Shown: positions 17,791-35,605, numbered from the stretch's first letter. The stretch is DNA of 38,676 nt from a virus (IMGVR_UViG_2974632988_000001:123923-162598), one strand, 5' to 3'. Made by a program: numbers and translations. Notes: a model not told the origin generated them from the letters alone.

Positions 17791-18465
17791 TTAAAGTGTT
17801 GTATATTCGTCGTCATCGTCTTCGAATAATGCAATAGCCTTGTCCATTGCTTTCTTATTCAATGCGTAATCGGACTTAGGAGCCTCACCAGCAAGCTCCC
17901 GGTCATCAACTAGACGTTTACCCTTACCGCCTCTAGAACGCTCTCTAGCAAGCTCCTCGGCTTTCTCTAGCTGTTTGTTTATGTATTGAGTTACTTCGGA
18001 TTCACGAGATGTCATGCCGCCATTTTCCAGATGCTCATTGTACTCATCCAGTCCGTCGAATCGACCCTCAAGGTTTTTAAGGTCTTCCGCTTTAGTCATA
18101 GCATTAATCTGTTCAGCAATCTTATTACCGTCGTGACCGTCTTTAAGTACGTCCCAATCACCAACATCGCGGTTCCATACTTCTTCATCGAATGATGAAT
18201 CATAATGGTCGCCATCGCCTTGTACACCTTTACGTGCGCGTTCCATTTCCCTAGCATCTTCCGCCATAGAATAAAGCATTAAGTCTATCTGGATATCGGA
18301 TAGTGCTTTAAACTCTGGACTAGTTGGGAGTATCTTAAACTCCCTCATTAATGCCCACAGATTTCGCATATAAGGAGTACGAGCTAATTGTTTTAACCCG
18401 CCGAACTGCTTTACCTTATCTACGAAAGGTTTGCATCCATGCGGAGAAATCAACCCCGATTGCAT
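17791..18465 (-). CDS. Tail assembly chaperone, downstream (GT-like) part; probably reached by +1 frameshift from the upstream ORF
   Basis: Overlaps the upstream chaperone by 50 nt in the +1 frame; no clear SD before its ATGs; immediately upstream of the tape measure. Confidence 0.75.
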   Translation of the reverse strand: MQSGLISPHGCKPFVDKVKQFGGLKQLARTPYMRNLWALMREFKILPTSPEFKALSDIQIDLMLYSMAEDAREMERARKGVQGDGDHYDSSFDEEVWNRDVGDWDVLKDGHDGNKIAEQINAMTKAEDLKNLEGRFDGLDEYNEHLENGGMTSRESEVTQYINKQLEKAEELARERSRGGKGKRLVDDRELAGEAPKSDYALNKKAMDKAIALFEDDDDEYTTL

Positions 18466-18844
18466 ATAAGATATCTAAATTGTAAATATCCTCATCCTTT
18501 TCTAAGCATTTTGGAACTTCTTTACCGCAAACTCGTAGAGATGCTAATGTTTGATATACGATTAAGTAGTACTGTGACATGTATGTATTCATTCCGCTTA
18601 AGTATCCTGCTGTCATCGCTTGGATTTTACCGACTTCGATTGCGTTAGGTGCTTTGATTGCGACTGTAAACTTCAAGTCAAATTCTGGTAAGTCATACTC
18701 TTTTCTAAATACGTCATTCTTACCTCGGATAATTCTATCTACTACCTCTCGTTGCTCTTCTTGTCTTTCTACTTCTATCTGCTCCGGCGTTTTAGCCTCT
18801 TGTAAGTGTTCAATATCTTTCTGAATATTCTGAAAATTTGTCAT
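18416..18844 (-). CDS. Tail assembly chaperone (G-like, 142 aa)
   Basis: SD AGGAGG; canonical position upstream of the tape measure. Confidence 0.8.
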   Translation of the reverse strand: MTNFQNIQKDIEHLQEAKTPEQIEVERQEEQREVVDRIIRGKNDVFRKEYDLPEFDLKFTVAIKAPNAIEVGKIQAMTAGYLSGMNTYMSQYYLIVYQTLASLRVCGKEVPKCLEKDEDIYNLDILYAIGVDFSAWMQTFRR

Positions 18845-18873
18845 GTTTATTTGCCTCCTAAGTTATCTATTAA

Positions 18874-18881
18874 TAATATAG
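18874..18881 (-). promoter_or_regulatory. Putative late promoter -10 (TGCTATATTA)
   Basis: Recurrent motif upstream of the chaperone SD. Confidence 0.6.
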
Positions 18882-18904
18882 CACTTGCTTTTCCCTATAT
18901 ATCT

Positions 18905-18913
18905 ATTATAACA
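18905..18913 (-). promoter_or_regulatory. Extended -10 promoter (TGTTATAAT)
   Basis: Exact motif just downstream of the Rok-like gene terminator. Confidence 0.5.
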
Positions 18914-18914
18914 T

Positions 18915-18944
18915 AAAAAGGACTACCCACTTGTTGGATAGCCC
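18915..18944 (-). terminator. Intrinsic terminator of the Rok-like gene
   Basis: GGGCTATCC-7 nt-GGGTAGTCC (G-U pairs) followed by TTTTT. Confidence 0.75.
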
Positions 18945-18953
18945 TCTAGTAAA

Positions 18954-19622
18954 TTACTTAACATATTGGTATAAACCATAACCTGCACTTTGAATCGTTG
19001 GCTCGTGCATCTTGATTTGTCGTAATGTTTCGTGTGGATGGTTCATTTGGATTCCTGCATCATTTAAAGCTTTAATCAAGTCTTTAGATTTCATTGGTTC
19101 TACATGCTCTTTAAGAATTACTTTAGCAAATTGAGAAACAACTTTGTTGTCATTCATTGAACCTCTCATAAGTGTCTTTCTCATTTCTAACTTATCAGGC
19201 TCAAGACCAGCAGAAGGTTTTTCTTTAGGCTTGTCCACATTAAGAGGTAGGATGTCTGGTTGCTCAATTTCGTTACATAAGTTTGTAGGTTGCGTTGGTT
19301 CTGCAATTGTTATTCCTTCTTTTTTCATGTCAGCTACTATAGATTTTAGCTCGTCCATCATTTCTGGAATGATTTTTTTGAACTCTTCTCTTGCATTTCT
19401 ATTAGCTTCTTCTACCATTTCTTGTGGAACCATTGGTCTTTCGTAAACCTCTGTTACGAATTTATCTACTGTATCAGCTTGTTCGCTCATTCTATCGATT
19501 TCGTCTAGTTCTCTTAATCTATCTAAGTTCTTTACGTACTCTGTATATAAACGAGCGCGCTCCTCTTCGATATAATTCATCATTCTTTCTATAGCTTGTC
19601 TTTCTGTAAATGTTGATGTCAT
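18954..19622 (-). CDS. Rok-like nucleoid-associated protein / xenogeneic-silencer homologue (222 aa; N-terminal oligomerisation coil, C-terminal winged helix)
   Basis: Start reassigned to ATG 19622 (SD AAGGAG). FTERQAI...RLRELD and ILKEHVEPMKSKDL...EPTIQSAGYGLY resemble B. subtilis Rok (FNEREAL...KLRELD; TLKRHNAAIKSSEL...YPEVKKPYRGQY; Rok sequence recalled from memory). Confidence 0.7.
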   Translation of the reverse strand: MTSTFTERQAIERMMNYIEEERARLYTEYVKNLDRLRELDEIDRMSEQADTVDKFVTEVYERPMVPQEMVEEANRNAREEFKKIIPEMMDELKSIVADMKKEGITIAEPTQPTNLCNEIEQPDILPLNVDKPKEKPSAGLEPDKLEMRKTLMRGSMNDNKVVSQFAKVILKEHVEPMKSKDLIKALNDAGIQMNHPHETLRQIKMHEPTIQSAGYGLYQYVK

Positions 19623-19653
19623 TTTATGCATCTCCTTGTCATTTGATAACCTT

Positions 19654-19682
19654 AGTATAATTAGGCATTTCCCAAAAGTCAA
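19654..19682 (-). promoter_or_regulatory. SigA-type early promoter of the Rok-like gene
   Basis: TTGACT-N17-TATACT. Confidence 0.8.
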
Positions 19683-19691
19683 CAAGAAAAT

Positions 19692-19722
19692 AAAAAATAG
19701 ACACGATTATTTTTCGTGTCTA
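19692..19722 (-). terminator. Intrinsic terminator of the 3D-domain gene
   Basis: TAGACACGA-loop-TCGTGTCTA followed by TTTTTT on the minus strand. Confidence 0.8.
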
Positions 19723-19734
19723 CTTAATGGTCTA

Positions 19735-20349
19735 TTAATTTAGGATTGTAACTTGTACTGTTTTTCTTCCCCAGTCACTAGAAACCTTCTTGTTTGGCAT
19801 CAATACATCGATACGATTACCTTTGATTGCACCGCCTGTATCTCCTGCGATTGCTTCTCCATAACCTTCAACATAAATACGAGAACCAAGTGGAATTACT
19901 CTAGGGTCAACTGCAACCATTTTCATACTAGGGTTTGCTGATAAGTTATGTCCCATTGCTGTTTTAACTACTCCACCATATGTACCGCCATTCTCTGCTG
20001 GGTCTGCTGTATATGCAGTAGCAACAACTGTAAGTGTTTTACCTGATGGTTTTTGAACTACAGTTTCTTTCTTAGGTTCTGCTTGAACCGGAGCTTTCGT
20101 ATGTACGACTTCTTGTGTGTTACCTTTTAGTAAAGATAATAGATTAATATTTTGTTCTGCTGTTCCTGTGTAATTACCAATTCCATAGTTAGAAGCTAAT
20201 TGACTACGGTTAGAGAAACTATGGTCTTCTCCTTTTTGGTATAGGTAATCTACTACGCTTGTCTCACTAGCTTGTGCGCTGTGACCTCCTACAAACAAGA
20301 TTCCTGTACCGATTGCTAATGTTGTTACGATATTCCTTAATGTTTTCAT
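19735..20349 (-). CDS. Secreted 3D-domain (MltA-like lytic transglycosylase; YocH/Sps-like) protein with a DUF3597-like cell-wall-binding module
   Basis: Start at ATG 20349 (SD GAGGAG). Signal peptide MKTLRNIVTTLAIGTGILFVGGHSAQA; SVVDYL...SF.NR..LA..YGI.NYTGTAEQN..LL module; 3D motif VVATAYT...VAVDPRVIPLGS.IYVEGYGEAIAGDTGGAIKGNRIDV. Confidence 0.9.
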   Translation of the reverse strand: MKTLRNIVTTLAIGTGILFVGGHSAQASETSVVDYLYQKGEDHSFSNRSQLASNYGIGNYTGTAEQNINLLSLLKGNTQEVVHTKAPVQAEPKKETVVQKPSGKTLTVVATAYTADPAENGGTYGGVVKTAMGHNLSANPSMKMVAVDPRVIPLGSRIYVEGYGEAIAGDTGGAIKGNRIDVLMPNKKVSSDWGRKTVQVTILN

Positions 20350-20394
20350 TAATTCGTTCTCCTCTACATTATATTTGTATTGCTTATACTTCTT

Positions 20395-20403
20395 AATGTA
20401 ACA
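20395..20403 (-). promoter_or_regulatory. Possible extended -10 (TGTTACATT) of the 3D gene with a poor -35 (AATGAT)
   Basis: TGn-TACATT; weak -35, consistent with activator dependence. Confidence 0.4.
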
Positions 20404-33604: not shown

Positions 33605-35288
33605 TATTGCCTTTTCCTCCTTGCTTTGCAGAGTTGGTATTTCTAGCTCCTTTTACTTGACCATCTTTACCTACAGTCTTGTTAAAGGTACCTTTACCAT
33701 TGACATTACCGGAATCGCCGTTCATGCCTTTTTGTTGCGCTTCTGACTGCTCTTTGGTTGGTGTCTTGGTTTTAGCTGCTGCATTCGCTTGTTTGGCTTC
33801 TTGCTTCTGTAATGCGAACTGTTGCTCCATCATTTTCTCTTGCATGATTTGACCTAGACTTTGTACGTGAACACCACTATTGATTACGTCTCCACCTTCT
33901 ACTGGAGGATAGCCAAGCTTCTTACGGATATCATTAAATGTAAGACCGACTTTAGACTGTAATTCAAGAGTTTCTAAGATTTCACGTTCTGTCTGTGCGT
34001 CTCCACCAACGAATGTGAATATGTACTTGTCACCAAATTGTGAAACTATGTATTTGTTAATTGCATCCTCTAGGAACTTTAATAGAGGCTCTAATCCTTT
34101 GTCACGAGATATACGGTTCTTTTCTCGTGCGCTTGTTTCGTTTAATGTGCTACCAGAACTACCAGTAGCTCCTCCACGGTTCGGGAAGTTAATCTCCGAT
34201 GGGTCGATAGCATAGATACTACATAAAACGTTAATTAGATAGTTTAGCCATCTCTCGAACTCCATATCTCTCGATGATTGAGTCATATTGATAAACTTAA
34301 CATCTTCTGCGGATACAACCGGAATCTTCCAAGCACCGTTAATGCCACTAAACATAGTTTGCCATTCGCGACGGAATGCTTGTAAAGCGTGTCTTGATTG
34401 GTCTTGTCCAGTTTTGATGTGAAGTAATCCACGAGTCGTACCACCTTGAGCAAAGTAACGAGCATTGAATAGCTCTGTGTTCTCATGGTATTGTAAATGA
34501 TTCATTGCTAATTCTAACTCTGAATACCCATACCTACCTATAGTCATGTCAGTACGCGGGTTATGTACTTCCCAAGCCATCTCTTTTGCTTTGAAATGAG
34601 CTACTGGTCTACGGTCTAACACCTGTACGAACTTATCGACGTTATCGCCTTTAGGTTCTTTACCGTCTTCGTCAACCGCTACATAGATTGTAGAAGCATC
34701 AACAGCTTTGAATCGAGTTAGTTCGCCCTCTTTATTGTAGATTAATTCGAAGTTAATCTTGTCATAAATAAGGCGGTCACGGATAATCTTCTTAATGAAC
34801 CCACGGAAGTTATCTCGTGTGAAGTCGTCCTTAACCTTTCCGGTGTATTGCAGGAAGTCTTCTATGCGCTGGATTGCAGCTTCTTCATGTGTAGTTGGGT
34901 CTTTAAACGGGTCTTTCAATCGAACCTCGTAGCCCACACCTCTCGAACTATACCGAGCCGGACTACAGAACATTGAGACTTGGTTAACGCGGGTATTGAT
35001 GATGGCATTCACAATAATGTTCTTTCGTGACCACAACTTTAGGTTTTCTAATAGATTGTAGTTACCATCTTTTGAAGGAGCTTCCTTGTAATCAGGGTTA
35101 ATTGAGAACTGACCTAATATCGGTTCTTCGTAAGCTTTAGCTCTACCTTCTTTGGCTGTTGTACTTTTCATAATCTGCTCTTCTTCAATCTGTCGAATCA
35201 TTGTAGATATCTCAGAGTGCTTGTCCTCTGGATTCAATAACTCTAGCGGATTTGAAGGAGCTTTTTTTAGGAAATCCCAGAATCCCAT
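33561..35288 (-). CDS. Portal protein (~575 aa)
   Basis: F.QGGTTRGLLHIK...GINGAWKIPVV...DMEFERWLNYLIN...IDPSEINFPN portal motifs; SD favours ATG 35288. Confidence 0.95.
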   Translation of the reverse strand: MGFWDFLKKAPSNPLELLNPEDKHSEISTMIRQIEEEQIMKSTTAKEGRAKAYEEPILGQFSINPDYKEAPSKDGNYNLLENLKLWSRKNIIVNAIINTRVNQVSMFCSPARYSSRGVGYEVRLKDPFKDPTTHEEAAIQRIEDFLQYTGKVKDDFTRDNFRGFIKKIIRDRLIYDKINFELIYNKEGELTRFKAVDASTIYVAVDEDGKEPKGDNVDKFVQVLDRRPVAHFKAKEMAWEVHNPRTDMTIGRYGYSELELAMNHLQYHENTELFNARYFAQGGTTRGLLHIKTGQDQSRHALQAFRREWQTMFSGINGAWKIPVVSAEDVKFINMTQSSRDMEFERWLNYLINVLCSIYAIDPSEINFPNRGGATGSSGSTLNETSAREKNRISRDKGLEPLLKFLEDAINKYIVSQFGDKYIFTFVGGDAQTEREILETLELQSKVGLTFNDIRKKLGYPPVEGGDVINSGVHVQSLGQIMQEKMMEQQFALQKQEAKQANAAAKTKTPTKEQSEAQQKGMNGDSGNVNGKGTFNKTVGKDGQVKGARNTNSAKQGGKGNNGETVNSDARKAKK

Positions 35289-35308
35289 TTGCATTCCACC
35301 TTCTATTC

Positions 35309-35325
35309 AAATAAAATAGGGAATA
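35309..35325 (+). repeat. 17-bp repeat copy 1 (AAATAAAATAGGGAATA)
   Basis: Identical core to the copies at 36252, 36406 and (inverted) 37299. Confidence 0.85.
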
Positions 35326-35332
35326 TTCTGAA

Positions 35333-35605
35333 TTATCTGTATTCGAAAACCTTACGACTGTTCTTGACATCGAGATAACTTGCATAGACTATTTCCCCGT
35401 TCGCATCAATTAAGGCTACATTCTTATCTCCGGTCATATCCATGATTAATAGTTTCTCTCGGTCTATGATGGCATACACTTTCACTTTCGTTCCACCTAA
35501 GAGCCTGTAGTAACTAACCACTTCAATCCAAGTTAAACCTGTAGCTAAAAGTTGCTTTGCTTTATTCCATTTTTCATCTTTTTGATATGAGGTCAATAAA
35601 ACCAC
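35333..35605 (-). CDS. Hypothetical protein upstream of the portal (90 aa)
   Basis: ORF behind late and extended -10 promoters; synteny. Confidence 0.65.
   Translation of the reverse strand: MVLLTSYQKDEKWNKAKQLLATGLTWIEVVSYYRLLGGTKVKVYAIIDREKLLIMDMTGDKNVALIDANGEIVYASYLDVKNSRKVFEYR

Follow-up and report, generated by a model that had tools for sequence, protein, structure and literature searches.

A diverged Rok-like protein with a changed reading head in large lytic Bacillus phages

Introduction

Rok of B. subtilis and sRok, a relative encoded on the plasmid pLS20 and on some Bacillus chromosomes, bridge DNA and dimerise via residues 1-47; sRok retains the DNA-contact residues of Rok and works together with the host Rok (PMC9757077). 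Rok itself is built from an N-terminal helix of the Rok_N type, a flexible linker, and a winged helix of the WH_Rok type (structures 5zux and 5zuz), which is preceded by a basic tail with R108-G109-T110 located within the stretch R105-R112. A set of 201 Rok homologues shows no variation at the contact residues N154, K171, and R174 and high conservation at T156, and the exchange N154D kills DNA binding in Rok (Duan et al. 2018, PMC6212790). The protein is not universal in the genus: B. anthracis, B. cereus, B. thuringiensis, B. wiedmannii, B. toyonensis, and B. megaterium are species without Rok (Duan et al., PMC6212790).

For three of the four classical families of xenogeneic silencers, namely H-NS, MvaT, and Lsr2, phage homologues or antagonists have already been described. 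TF1 of SPO1, a large lytic Bacillus myophage, is an HU-type nucleoid-protein homologue that is produced in the infected cell, where it acts on DNA; it has an HU fold and prefers the hydroxymethyluracil DNA of the phage. The Lsr2-like proteins of actinophages and the H-NS protein of phage EPV1 are full-length silencer homologues whose function is largely unknown (PMC7074111), and H-NST and gp5.5 of phage T7 represent the case of a mobile element that targets the oligomerisation domain of H-NS (PMC6936261; PMC7074111). Phage homologues of Rok are mentioned neither in a 2020 review of horizontally acquired silencers (PMC7074111) nor in a 2024 review of Rok (PMC11841835). In GenBank, 'putative repressor of ComK' and 'DNA binding protein' occur as labels in some records of such homologues, and entries in UniRef carry the name of the Pfam domain. 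Databases thus already register the homology, but we found no study of, and no experiment on, phage Rok homologues in the literature.

Here, we describe a Rok-like protein (P0001) of a large lytic Bacillus phage. Judged by its sequence, what is new about this protein is that a phage-borne Rok variant combines the architecture and fold of Rok with a different reading head, an early-type promoter, and hosts that lack Rok. Like Rok, it follows a two-domain plan with a Rok_N-type helix, a flexible linker, and a WH_Rok winged helix, and an R-G-(S/T) tail that may correspond to the one of Rok lies ahead of the latter. It differs from Rok in being encoded by a phage and probably expressed from an early-class promoter, in most of the DNA-contact residues, in an N-terminal helix that is four residues shorter in register, and in an acidic linker that contains an extra helix. 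With sRok it shares the location on a mobile element, and its relatives in B. subtilis phages are sRok-sized, but sRok has kept the Rok contact residues and has a host Rok to work with, whereas the hosts of this phage have none. The Lsr2-like proteins and EPV1 H-NS are comparable as silencer homologues of phages, but they belong to other families and folds, and their hosts usually possess the cognate silencer. TF1 is likewise a nucleoid-protein homologue of a large lytic Bacillus myophage, but has the HU fold instead of a winged helix. The likeness to H-NST and T7 gp5.5 concerns the idea only: H-NST has no DNA-binding domain, whereas the phage protein keeps a full winged helix under purifying selection, and the B. 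cereus group has no host partner for it (PMC6212790; see below).

Results

The window analysed here, a stretch of 38,676 nucleotides, forms the final 38.7 kb of a virus record of 162.6 kb. The region shares 93.7% identity with the Bacillus phages Flapjack and Spock (Herelleviridae, Bastillevirinae, Bequatrovirus; host B. thuringiensis kurstaki), and by this relation the lytic phage assumed in an initial annotation of the window can be specified as a virulent myophage of the Bastillevirinae. The coding sequence of the Rok-like protein is located on the minus strand (18954..19622; 669 nt for 222 amino acids, with the stop codon counted) and starts with the ATG at 19622, nine nucleotides downstream of a ribosome-binding site, AAGGAG, that was read from the sequence (19632..19637, minus strand). 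An identical CDS length of 669 nt, the ribosome-binding site, and both flanking terminators are also found in the annotation of Spock_87 and BigBertha_87. A longer frame of 243 amino acids, starting from a TTG at 19685, was rejected as coding sequence because this TTG falls within the -35 box of the promoter. P0001 matches phrog_4665 over its full length (E = 2.6e-73), and it accounts for the only WH_Rok match in the whole phage genome. The motifs by which the gene had been recognised are all present in the protein, that is, FTERQAI (residues 5-11), RLRELD (35-40), ILKEH (169-173), MKSKDL (177-182), and GYGLY (214-218). Relative to Spock, BigBertha, and Juglone, dN/dS of the whole CDS amounts to 0.22-0.25, and by this measure the Rok-like gene is shown to be under purifying selection in the Bastillevirinae of Bacillus.

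The C-terminal part of the protein (residues 147-222; 18957..19184, minus strand) is a predicted basic DNA-binding module according to Pfam and structure matches. It consists of a tail with the invariant motif M-R-G-(S/T)-x-N-D-N (residues 152-159) that is followed by a Rok-type winged helix (159-222). Pfam WH_Rok (PF23159) matches residues 168-218 with 31.2 bits at a curated cut-off of 27.6, and the winged helix (159-220) is modelled by AF2 with a pLDDT of about 85. The structural comparison with the winged helix of Rok that had been proposed as a check gave a clear match: the top two Foldseek hits were the Rok DNA-binding-domain structures 5zuz (E = 2e-3) and then 5zux, and VIA-align placed residues 155-222 of the model on residues 115-181 of Rok in 5zuz with a Z score of 9.7 and an rmsd of 2.0 Å over 66 residues, compared to a Z score of 8.4 for the next-best winged helix. 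The module has a pI of 9.7 and a net charge of +5, and the protein as a whole is acidic (pI 5.2). Its dN/dS of 0.13-0.17 is the lowest of all P0001 domains. R153, G154, K167, K171, and K180 are invariant among the phage homologues, and K178 is nearly so. The invariant M152-R153-G154-(S/T)155 sits 16 residues before L170-K171, compared to a spacing of 19 residues in Rok; this tail has far fewer arginines, and the confidence of the model is low here.

Sequence searches of the PDB with P0001, with its C-terminal part, and with a 16-sequence profile did not find a Rok chain, and the link to Rok rests on Pfam, structure, and intermediate sequences. Regarding the latter, a phage-only profile retrieved a 'Rok-like winged helix domain-containing protein' of Bacillus sp. 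FJAT-50079 and a 'repressor of ComK' of Fictibacillus. In addition, one bridging sequence (P0177) matched the phage profile over its full length and aligned to Rok in the PDB with E = 3.6e-15. The nearest cluster in the ESM Atlas, also named 'Rok-like winged helix domain-containing protein' (score 0.88), is a lead at most. Since the direct PDB searches fail, the relationship to Rok must be remote, yet it is consistent across methods.

Residues 1-60 (19443..19622, minus strand) form a Rok_N-like helix, as indicated by an AF2 model built from 16 homologues and by a profile match. In the model, the helix comprises residues 2-60, with block-mean pLDDT values of about 73-92 for residues 1-50 and of 58 for residues 51-60; the monomer model thus shows a solitary helix of 59 residues. 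An hhalign comparison of 13 phage sequences with three cellular Rok-like N-termini yielded a probability of 95.7% and E = 9.8e-9 with a single 4-residue indel, and 24 residues of this region are invariant across the 13 phage homologues. Moreover, Pfam Rok_N (PF26513) is precomputed on Caeruleovirus-type homologues, which share 50-60% identity with P0001 at the N-terminus. The resemblance to Rok that the initial annotation had noticed at both ends of the protein is thereby borne out, by WH_Rok at one end and by hhalign at the other. By these sequence comparisons, the N-terminal helix is homologous to the N-terminal oligomerisation domain of Rok, and P0001 is a Rok relative in both domains, which belongs to a diverged subfamily rather than being a canonical Rok. 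The two domains are connected by a variable acidic linker (residues 61-146; 19185..19442, minus strand), delimited from model and alignment. It contains a second helix (67-101) and is disordered from residue 108 onwards, with a pLDDT below 50 over residues 108-156. Length and sequence of the linker differ among genera, its net charge is -8, and its dN/dS is 0.32-0.36.

To map the DNA contacts, 177 family members were aligned with MAFFT, and the alignment was anchored on the Rok sequence via PDB 5zuz. The numbering obtained reproduces K136, N154, T156, T157, K164, K171, and R174 of the published Rok study (PMC6212790). On the minus strand, N154 corresponds to H195 (19038-19040), T156 to H197 (19032-19034), K171 to S212 (18987-18989), and R174 to Y215 (18978-18980), so that the residues H, H, and Y, which a hand alignment had placed at N154, T156, and R174, are recovered in the anchored family alignment. 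T157 and K164 are replaced as well, by E198 and M205, respectively. Overall, seven of the eight winged-helix residues that contact DNA in Rok are changed in P0001, and among the mapped contacts only K136 is kept (K178). Because N154, T156, K171, and R174 are all replaced, P0001 lacks a defining feature of the Rok family.

The same alignment allowed us to follow these positions through the family. None of 38 Bastillevirinae-type sequences has Asn at Rok position 154 (Ser in 21, His in 16, Ala in one) or Thr at position 156 (Tyr in 22, His in 6, Asn in 6, Ser in 4), and position 174 is occupied by His (25), Tyr (10), Phe (2), or, in a single case, Arg. Among the 67 closest sequences, Tyr is found at position 156 in 50 and His, Phe, or Tyr at position 174 in 62. 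Distant members of the superfamily, several of which come from phage contigs of other types, have Asn at position 154 in 62 of 108 cases and Arg or Lys at position 174 in 72 of 108. Judging from this distribution, the change of the contact residues is a property of the clade and not the decay of a single gene. In the close, Bequatrovirus-type clade, H195 and E198 do not vary, and the column of position 197 ranks second in variability within the winged helix; three of the seven contact-equivalent columns are among the 12 most variable of 64 in this clade, which is suggestive, but non-significant. Since the substitutes are conserved in kind, the module is basic, and its dN/dS is low, we infer that the C-terminal module is a nucleic-acid-binding surface that has been retained, but rebuilt. 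The invariant E198 at the site of the minor-groove residue T157, together with the effect of N154D in Rok, indicates that minor-groove binding of the Rok type may be weakened or otherwise replaced.

A consensus scan identified a SigA-type promoter ahead of the gene (19654..19685, minus strand), which consists of an extended -35 element, TTGTTGACT (19685..19677), a 17-nt spacer, and the -10 element TATACT (19659..19654), and reads TTGTTGACT-TTTGGGAAATGCCTAAT-TATACT from 19685 to 19654. Its core, TTGACT-17-TATACT (19682..19654), agrees with the consensus at 10 of 12 positions. Further upstream, the gene for a 3D-domain peptidase ends in an intrinsic terminator (19695..19725, minus strand; 12-bp stem and T run), which by its predicted structure shields the Rok-like unit against read-through. 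The Rok-like gene has an intrinsic terminator of its own (18917..18947, minus strand; 13-bp stem and T run). In the promoter and terminator scan, three such sites were obtained in the region, compared to 1.0 expected. The upstream hairpin recurs in the B. cereus-group and B. megaterium phages Spock, BigBertha, Juglone, CM1, Deep Blue, and BM15, and in all six the order is upstream terminator, TTGTTGAC(T/A), 17 nt, and TATACT or TATAAT. The promoter of Goe3 matches the consensus at all positions (12/12), and that of SBSphiJ reads TTGACG-17-TATAAT. Promoter and both terminators are kept in eight other phages from four further genera, the proteins of which are about 30-85% identical. For phage Bc431v3, the elements Porf221, Torf221, and Torf222 are listed at the homologous gene (PMC3601020, Table S3). 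The monocistronic unit with a consensus SigA promoter described initially is thus a feature conserved across five genera, and the terminator assigned to it is found as the hairpin at 18947..18917, in addition to the one at 19725..19695.

The promoter belongs to a larger class. The 9-mer TTGTTGACT is present in 32 copies in the genome, compared to about 2.7 expected. Most of them are located at 27-51 kb ahead of small ORFs and others up to 94 kb; the sole copy in the last 68 kb (beyond 94 kb) is the one preceding the Rok-like gene. The copies have the common extended form AAAATAGTTGTTGACTTTTAGTAAA ... TAnAAT, and the promoter of the Rok-like gene shows all features of the class, i.e., the extended -35 element, a spacer of 17-18 nt starting with TTTT, and a TAnAAT-like -10 element. 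Other copies precede the genes for a sigma-70-family factor (Pfam Sigma70_r2/r4, phrog_351) and an Ocr-like anti-restriction protein (phrog_2568). Sigma factors and Ocr-like anti-restriction proteins are typical early functions. Because the promoter class is common to these two genes, early expression of the Rok-like gene is likely as well, and by its promoter it is probably an early gene that is parked within the late tail module. No usable transcriptome, either for phages of the Bastillevirinae or for SBSphiJ, was found in the literature.

Searches by tblastn with P0001 matched 105 phage records, and the matches listed were essentially all from large Bacillus myophages, with B. cereus, B. 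thuringiensis, B. anthracis, B. megaterium, B. pumilus, B. subtilis, and B. licheniformis among the hosts. A shorter version from B. subtilis phages (SIOphi/fHSPT3 type; 166 amino acids, pI 9.5) matched 131 records. No SPO1-type phage with a Rok-like protein was among the tblastn matches listed. The locus is constant in all records examined, which represent Bequatrovirus, Caeruleovirus, Grisebachstrassevirus, Nitunavirus, Siophivirus, and one 96-kb metagenomic contig: the Rok-like gene is located between the gene for the 3D-domain peptidase and those for the tail assembly chaperones. With the phage-only profile, 218 clusters were recovered among 1.84 billion representatives. We inspected the context of five further clusters. 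One is located in a Herelleviridae tail module (P0041), one has a lysin on one side and an antirepressor and a primase on the other (P0072), one adjoins a gene of the ANT-domain (antirepressor) family (P0090), one is part of a replication and recombination module (P0089), and one adjoins an amidase and a serine recombinase (P0186). Since all five contexts are phage-like, Rok-type proteins look common in Bacillota phages. A scan of 185,579 species genomes for patterns from the phage-clade alignment found no relatives, which is weak evidence of absence because two peptide patterns only were used. Among soil metatranscriptome contigs, relatives of the region were found at about 90% identity; ends, strand, and level were not readable from these contigs, and carry-over of DNA is possible.

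On the host side, WH_Rok matches above the cut-off were present in 76 of 401 sampled genomes of the order. Thirteen genomes of this sample have a strong nheABC-type operon, which served as proxy for the B. cereus group, and in none of them was WH_Rok found. Since the hosts are without Rok, the phage would bring this activity in rather than interfere with a host copy. With 37.7% GC, the phage is no more AT-rich than B. anthracis (35.4% GC, 64.6% AT; PMC6212790), and its DNA therefore does not stand out as unusually AT-rich, as the target of a silencer would.

Discussion

Taken together, we propose that P0001 is an early phage nucleoid-associated protein that binds and bridges DNA, and a diverged member of the Rok superfamily, and we assign a probability of roughly 60% to this reading. 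According to this proposal, host RNA polymerase with SigA would transcribe the gene right after DNA entry, alongside the early genes for the sigma factor, the Ocr-like protein, and the small ORFs. The N-terminal helix would form coiled-coil dimers or oligomers like that of Rok, and each subunit would contact DNA via the winged helix together with the tail (R153-G154-S155). The rebuilt reading head, in which N154, T156, and R174 of Rok have given way to His or Ser, to Tyr or His, and to an aromatic or imidazole residue, respectively, should then differ from that of Rok in its preference for sequence or shape. Such an oligomer could bridge or coat the host nucleoid or the phage genome and thereby lead to silencing, compaction, or organisation. 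The initial annotation had left the choice between a chromosome organiser with changed specificity and a dominant-negative counter-silencer. Each sequence element on which it was based is present, and its description of a Rok-like protein, encoded by a separate unit and carrying H/H/Y at the contact positions, stands; of its two interpretations, the chromosome organiser is plausible from the sequence data and is the one we favour, and the counter-silencer is disfavoured for the reasons given below.

Rather than coating DNA broadly, the protein could be a sequence-specific regulator, in which a dimeric winged helix would bind a few phage sites, e.g., the early promoters sharing the spacer TTTTAGTAAA, and switch the temporal programme. 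There is precedent for this within the family, since Rok was found as a repressor of a single promoter, comK (PMC11841835). The rebuilt reading head, which is partly clade-specific with the invariant H195 and the variable position 197 of the Bequatrovirus-type clade, would fit such a function, as would the unusually conserved spacer of the early promoter class, which is shared in part by the promoter of the gene itself. However, proteins of the Rok family have a micromolar affinity for DNA and show little specificity (PMC6212790), the combination of a long coiled coil and a flexible linker typically marks bridging proteins (PMC9757077), and a binding site within the promoter spacer is pure inference. 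We therefore regard a sequence-specific regulator as possible, but unlikely.

The counter-silencer would use its N-terminal helix to hetero-oligomerise with a Rok-like silencer of the host and free the phage DNA, comparable to H-NST or sRok. The homology of this helix to Rok_N, the loss of the canonical contact residues, and the existence of relatives in phages that infect B. subtilis, a Rok-bearing host, are all compatible with this idea, and sRok does heterodimerise with Rok and alter its bridging (PMC9757077). But its target is apparently missing in the hosts of this phage. The B. cereus group has no Rok (PMC6212790), in agreement with 0/13 in our nheABC-type genomes, and phages whose hosts are the Rok-less B. 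cereus, B. thuringiensis, B. anthracis, and B. megaterium have conserved the gene just as well. The presence of the gene where the host is without Rok argues for direct action on DNA as opposed to interference with a host protein. The premise of AT-rich phage DNA to be freed does not hold either, given the GC contents of phage and host. Furthermore, in contrast to the truncated H-NST, the protein has kept its C-terminal domain, which is basic and under the strongest purifying selection, and the 4-residue indel puts the register of its coiled coil out of step with Rok. In the light of this evidence, a counter-silencer is very improbable for this phage, but it is conceivable for the relatives that infect B. 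subtilis.

Equally improbable is a structural or accessory protein of tail assembly whose winged helix would serve protein-protein contacts: its place within the tail module is conserved in every member of the Bastillevirinae examined, but the gene is insulated by terminators and has an early-class promoter, the wider family is found in lysis, antirepressor, or replication neighbourhoods, the Bc431v3 table examined lists homologues from Listeria phage A511 and Enterococcus phage phiEF24C for the neighbouring chaperone genes and none for orf221, and the mass-spectrometry table examined for this phage, with 45 virion proteins, does not contain orf221, which is a weak argument against a structural role.

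Regardless of the exact mode of action, a Rok-type protein emerges as conserved and probably expressed early throughout a subfamily of large lytic Bacillus phages, which takes in SBSphiJ, a phage used in research on defence systems, and biocontrol phages of the B. cereus group. With the N-T-R triad replaced by nature, a ready-made series of variants is at hand for asking how the winged helix of Rok selects DNA. In addition, the breadth of the family in phages bears on the origin of the horizontally acquired rok of B. subtilis. As a tentative joint reading, which we would not put beyond a speculation based on sequence comparison, Rok-type proteins could be primarily a family of Bacillota phages, from which the rok gene of the B. 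subtilis group would have been domesticated, and the Bastillevirinae branch would have evolved the aromatic/imidazole reading head. Its protein, made in the first minutes of infection, might then bind to the DNA of host or phage, or bridge it, where the host lacks a silencer of its own, and thus provide a virus-delivered xenogeneic-silencer activity for takeover. Concerning other mobile elements, a tblastn search of plasmids with the 166-amino-acid homologue P0035 found no sRok of the pLS20 type; the weak matches it gave belong to other elements, including a phage-like 'plasmid' of 165 kb.

Possible domain exchange within the Rok-like gene, and its relatives

We compared the Rok-like gene with its counterpart in the close Bequatrovirus relative Spock. 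While the N-terminal domain and the variable linker (window 19185-19622) have a synonymous divergence (dS) of ~0.2, the C-terminal domain, which comprises the WH_Rok winged-helix module (window 18957-19184), reaches a dS of 0.85. This approximately fourfold higher synonymous divergence suggests a recombination breakpoint within the gene and a swapping of DNA-binding modules among phages. Contigs about 90% identical to window 18400-20400 were recovered from soil metatranscriptome assemblies of several studies, and the matching contigs end within the variable linker. Their recurrence shows that relatives of this region are common in soil, but the contigs are uninformative on its transcription.

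Other Rok-family proteins were found in unrelated phage contexts (L024/L025:8001-8576, L037:1115-1636, L035:7001-7648, and L036:3264-3839). Their neighbors are genes for ANT-domain proteins (antirepressor family), lysins, a serine recombinase, or the replication proteins RecA, RecU, and Thy1. The equivalents of Asn-154 and Arg-174 of Rok are retained in most of them. In SIOphi-type B. subtilis phages, the Rok-like homologue (region L001:2678-3501, Siophivirus fHSPT3) is a basic protein (pI 9.5) of only 166 aa, similar in size to sRok. Its gene overlaps an upstream 108-aa ORF by ATGA and lacks the promoter found ahead of the gene in other genera.

Distribution of WH_Rok in host-order genomes

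A genome sample from the order containing Lederbergia and Bacillus was screened for the winged-helix module. WH_Rok matches above the cut-off were obtained for 76 of 401 genomes, some of which harbor two or three copies. Named carriers include Lederbergia, Domibacillus, Rossellomorea, and Fictibacillus. The spread of WH_Rok thus exceeds the picture of older papers, which confined it to the B. subtilis group.

A conserved class of early-type promoters

The promoter of the Rok-like gene (window 19654-19685) belongs to a class that recurs between 27 and 94 kb of the phage genome, with the extended phage-wide form AAAATAGTTGTTGACTTTTAGTAAA-(7-8 nt)-TAnAAT. The 9-mer TTGTTGACT occurs 32 times in the genome, compared to ~2.7 expected copies. 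Conservation of the spacer between the -35 and -10 elements is unusually high, and judging from this pattern the spacer may be a binding site for a regulator. Promoters of this class also precede two genes outside the window, encoding a 291-aa protein with an Ocr-like anti-restriction N-terminal part (phrog_2568; genome positions 34704-35582, L039) and a 304-aa σ70-family factor (60721-61638, L038).
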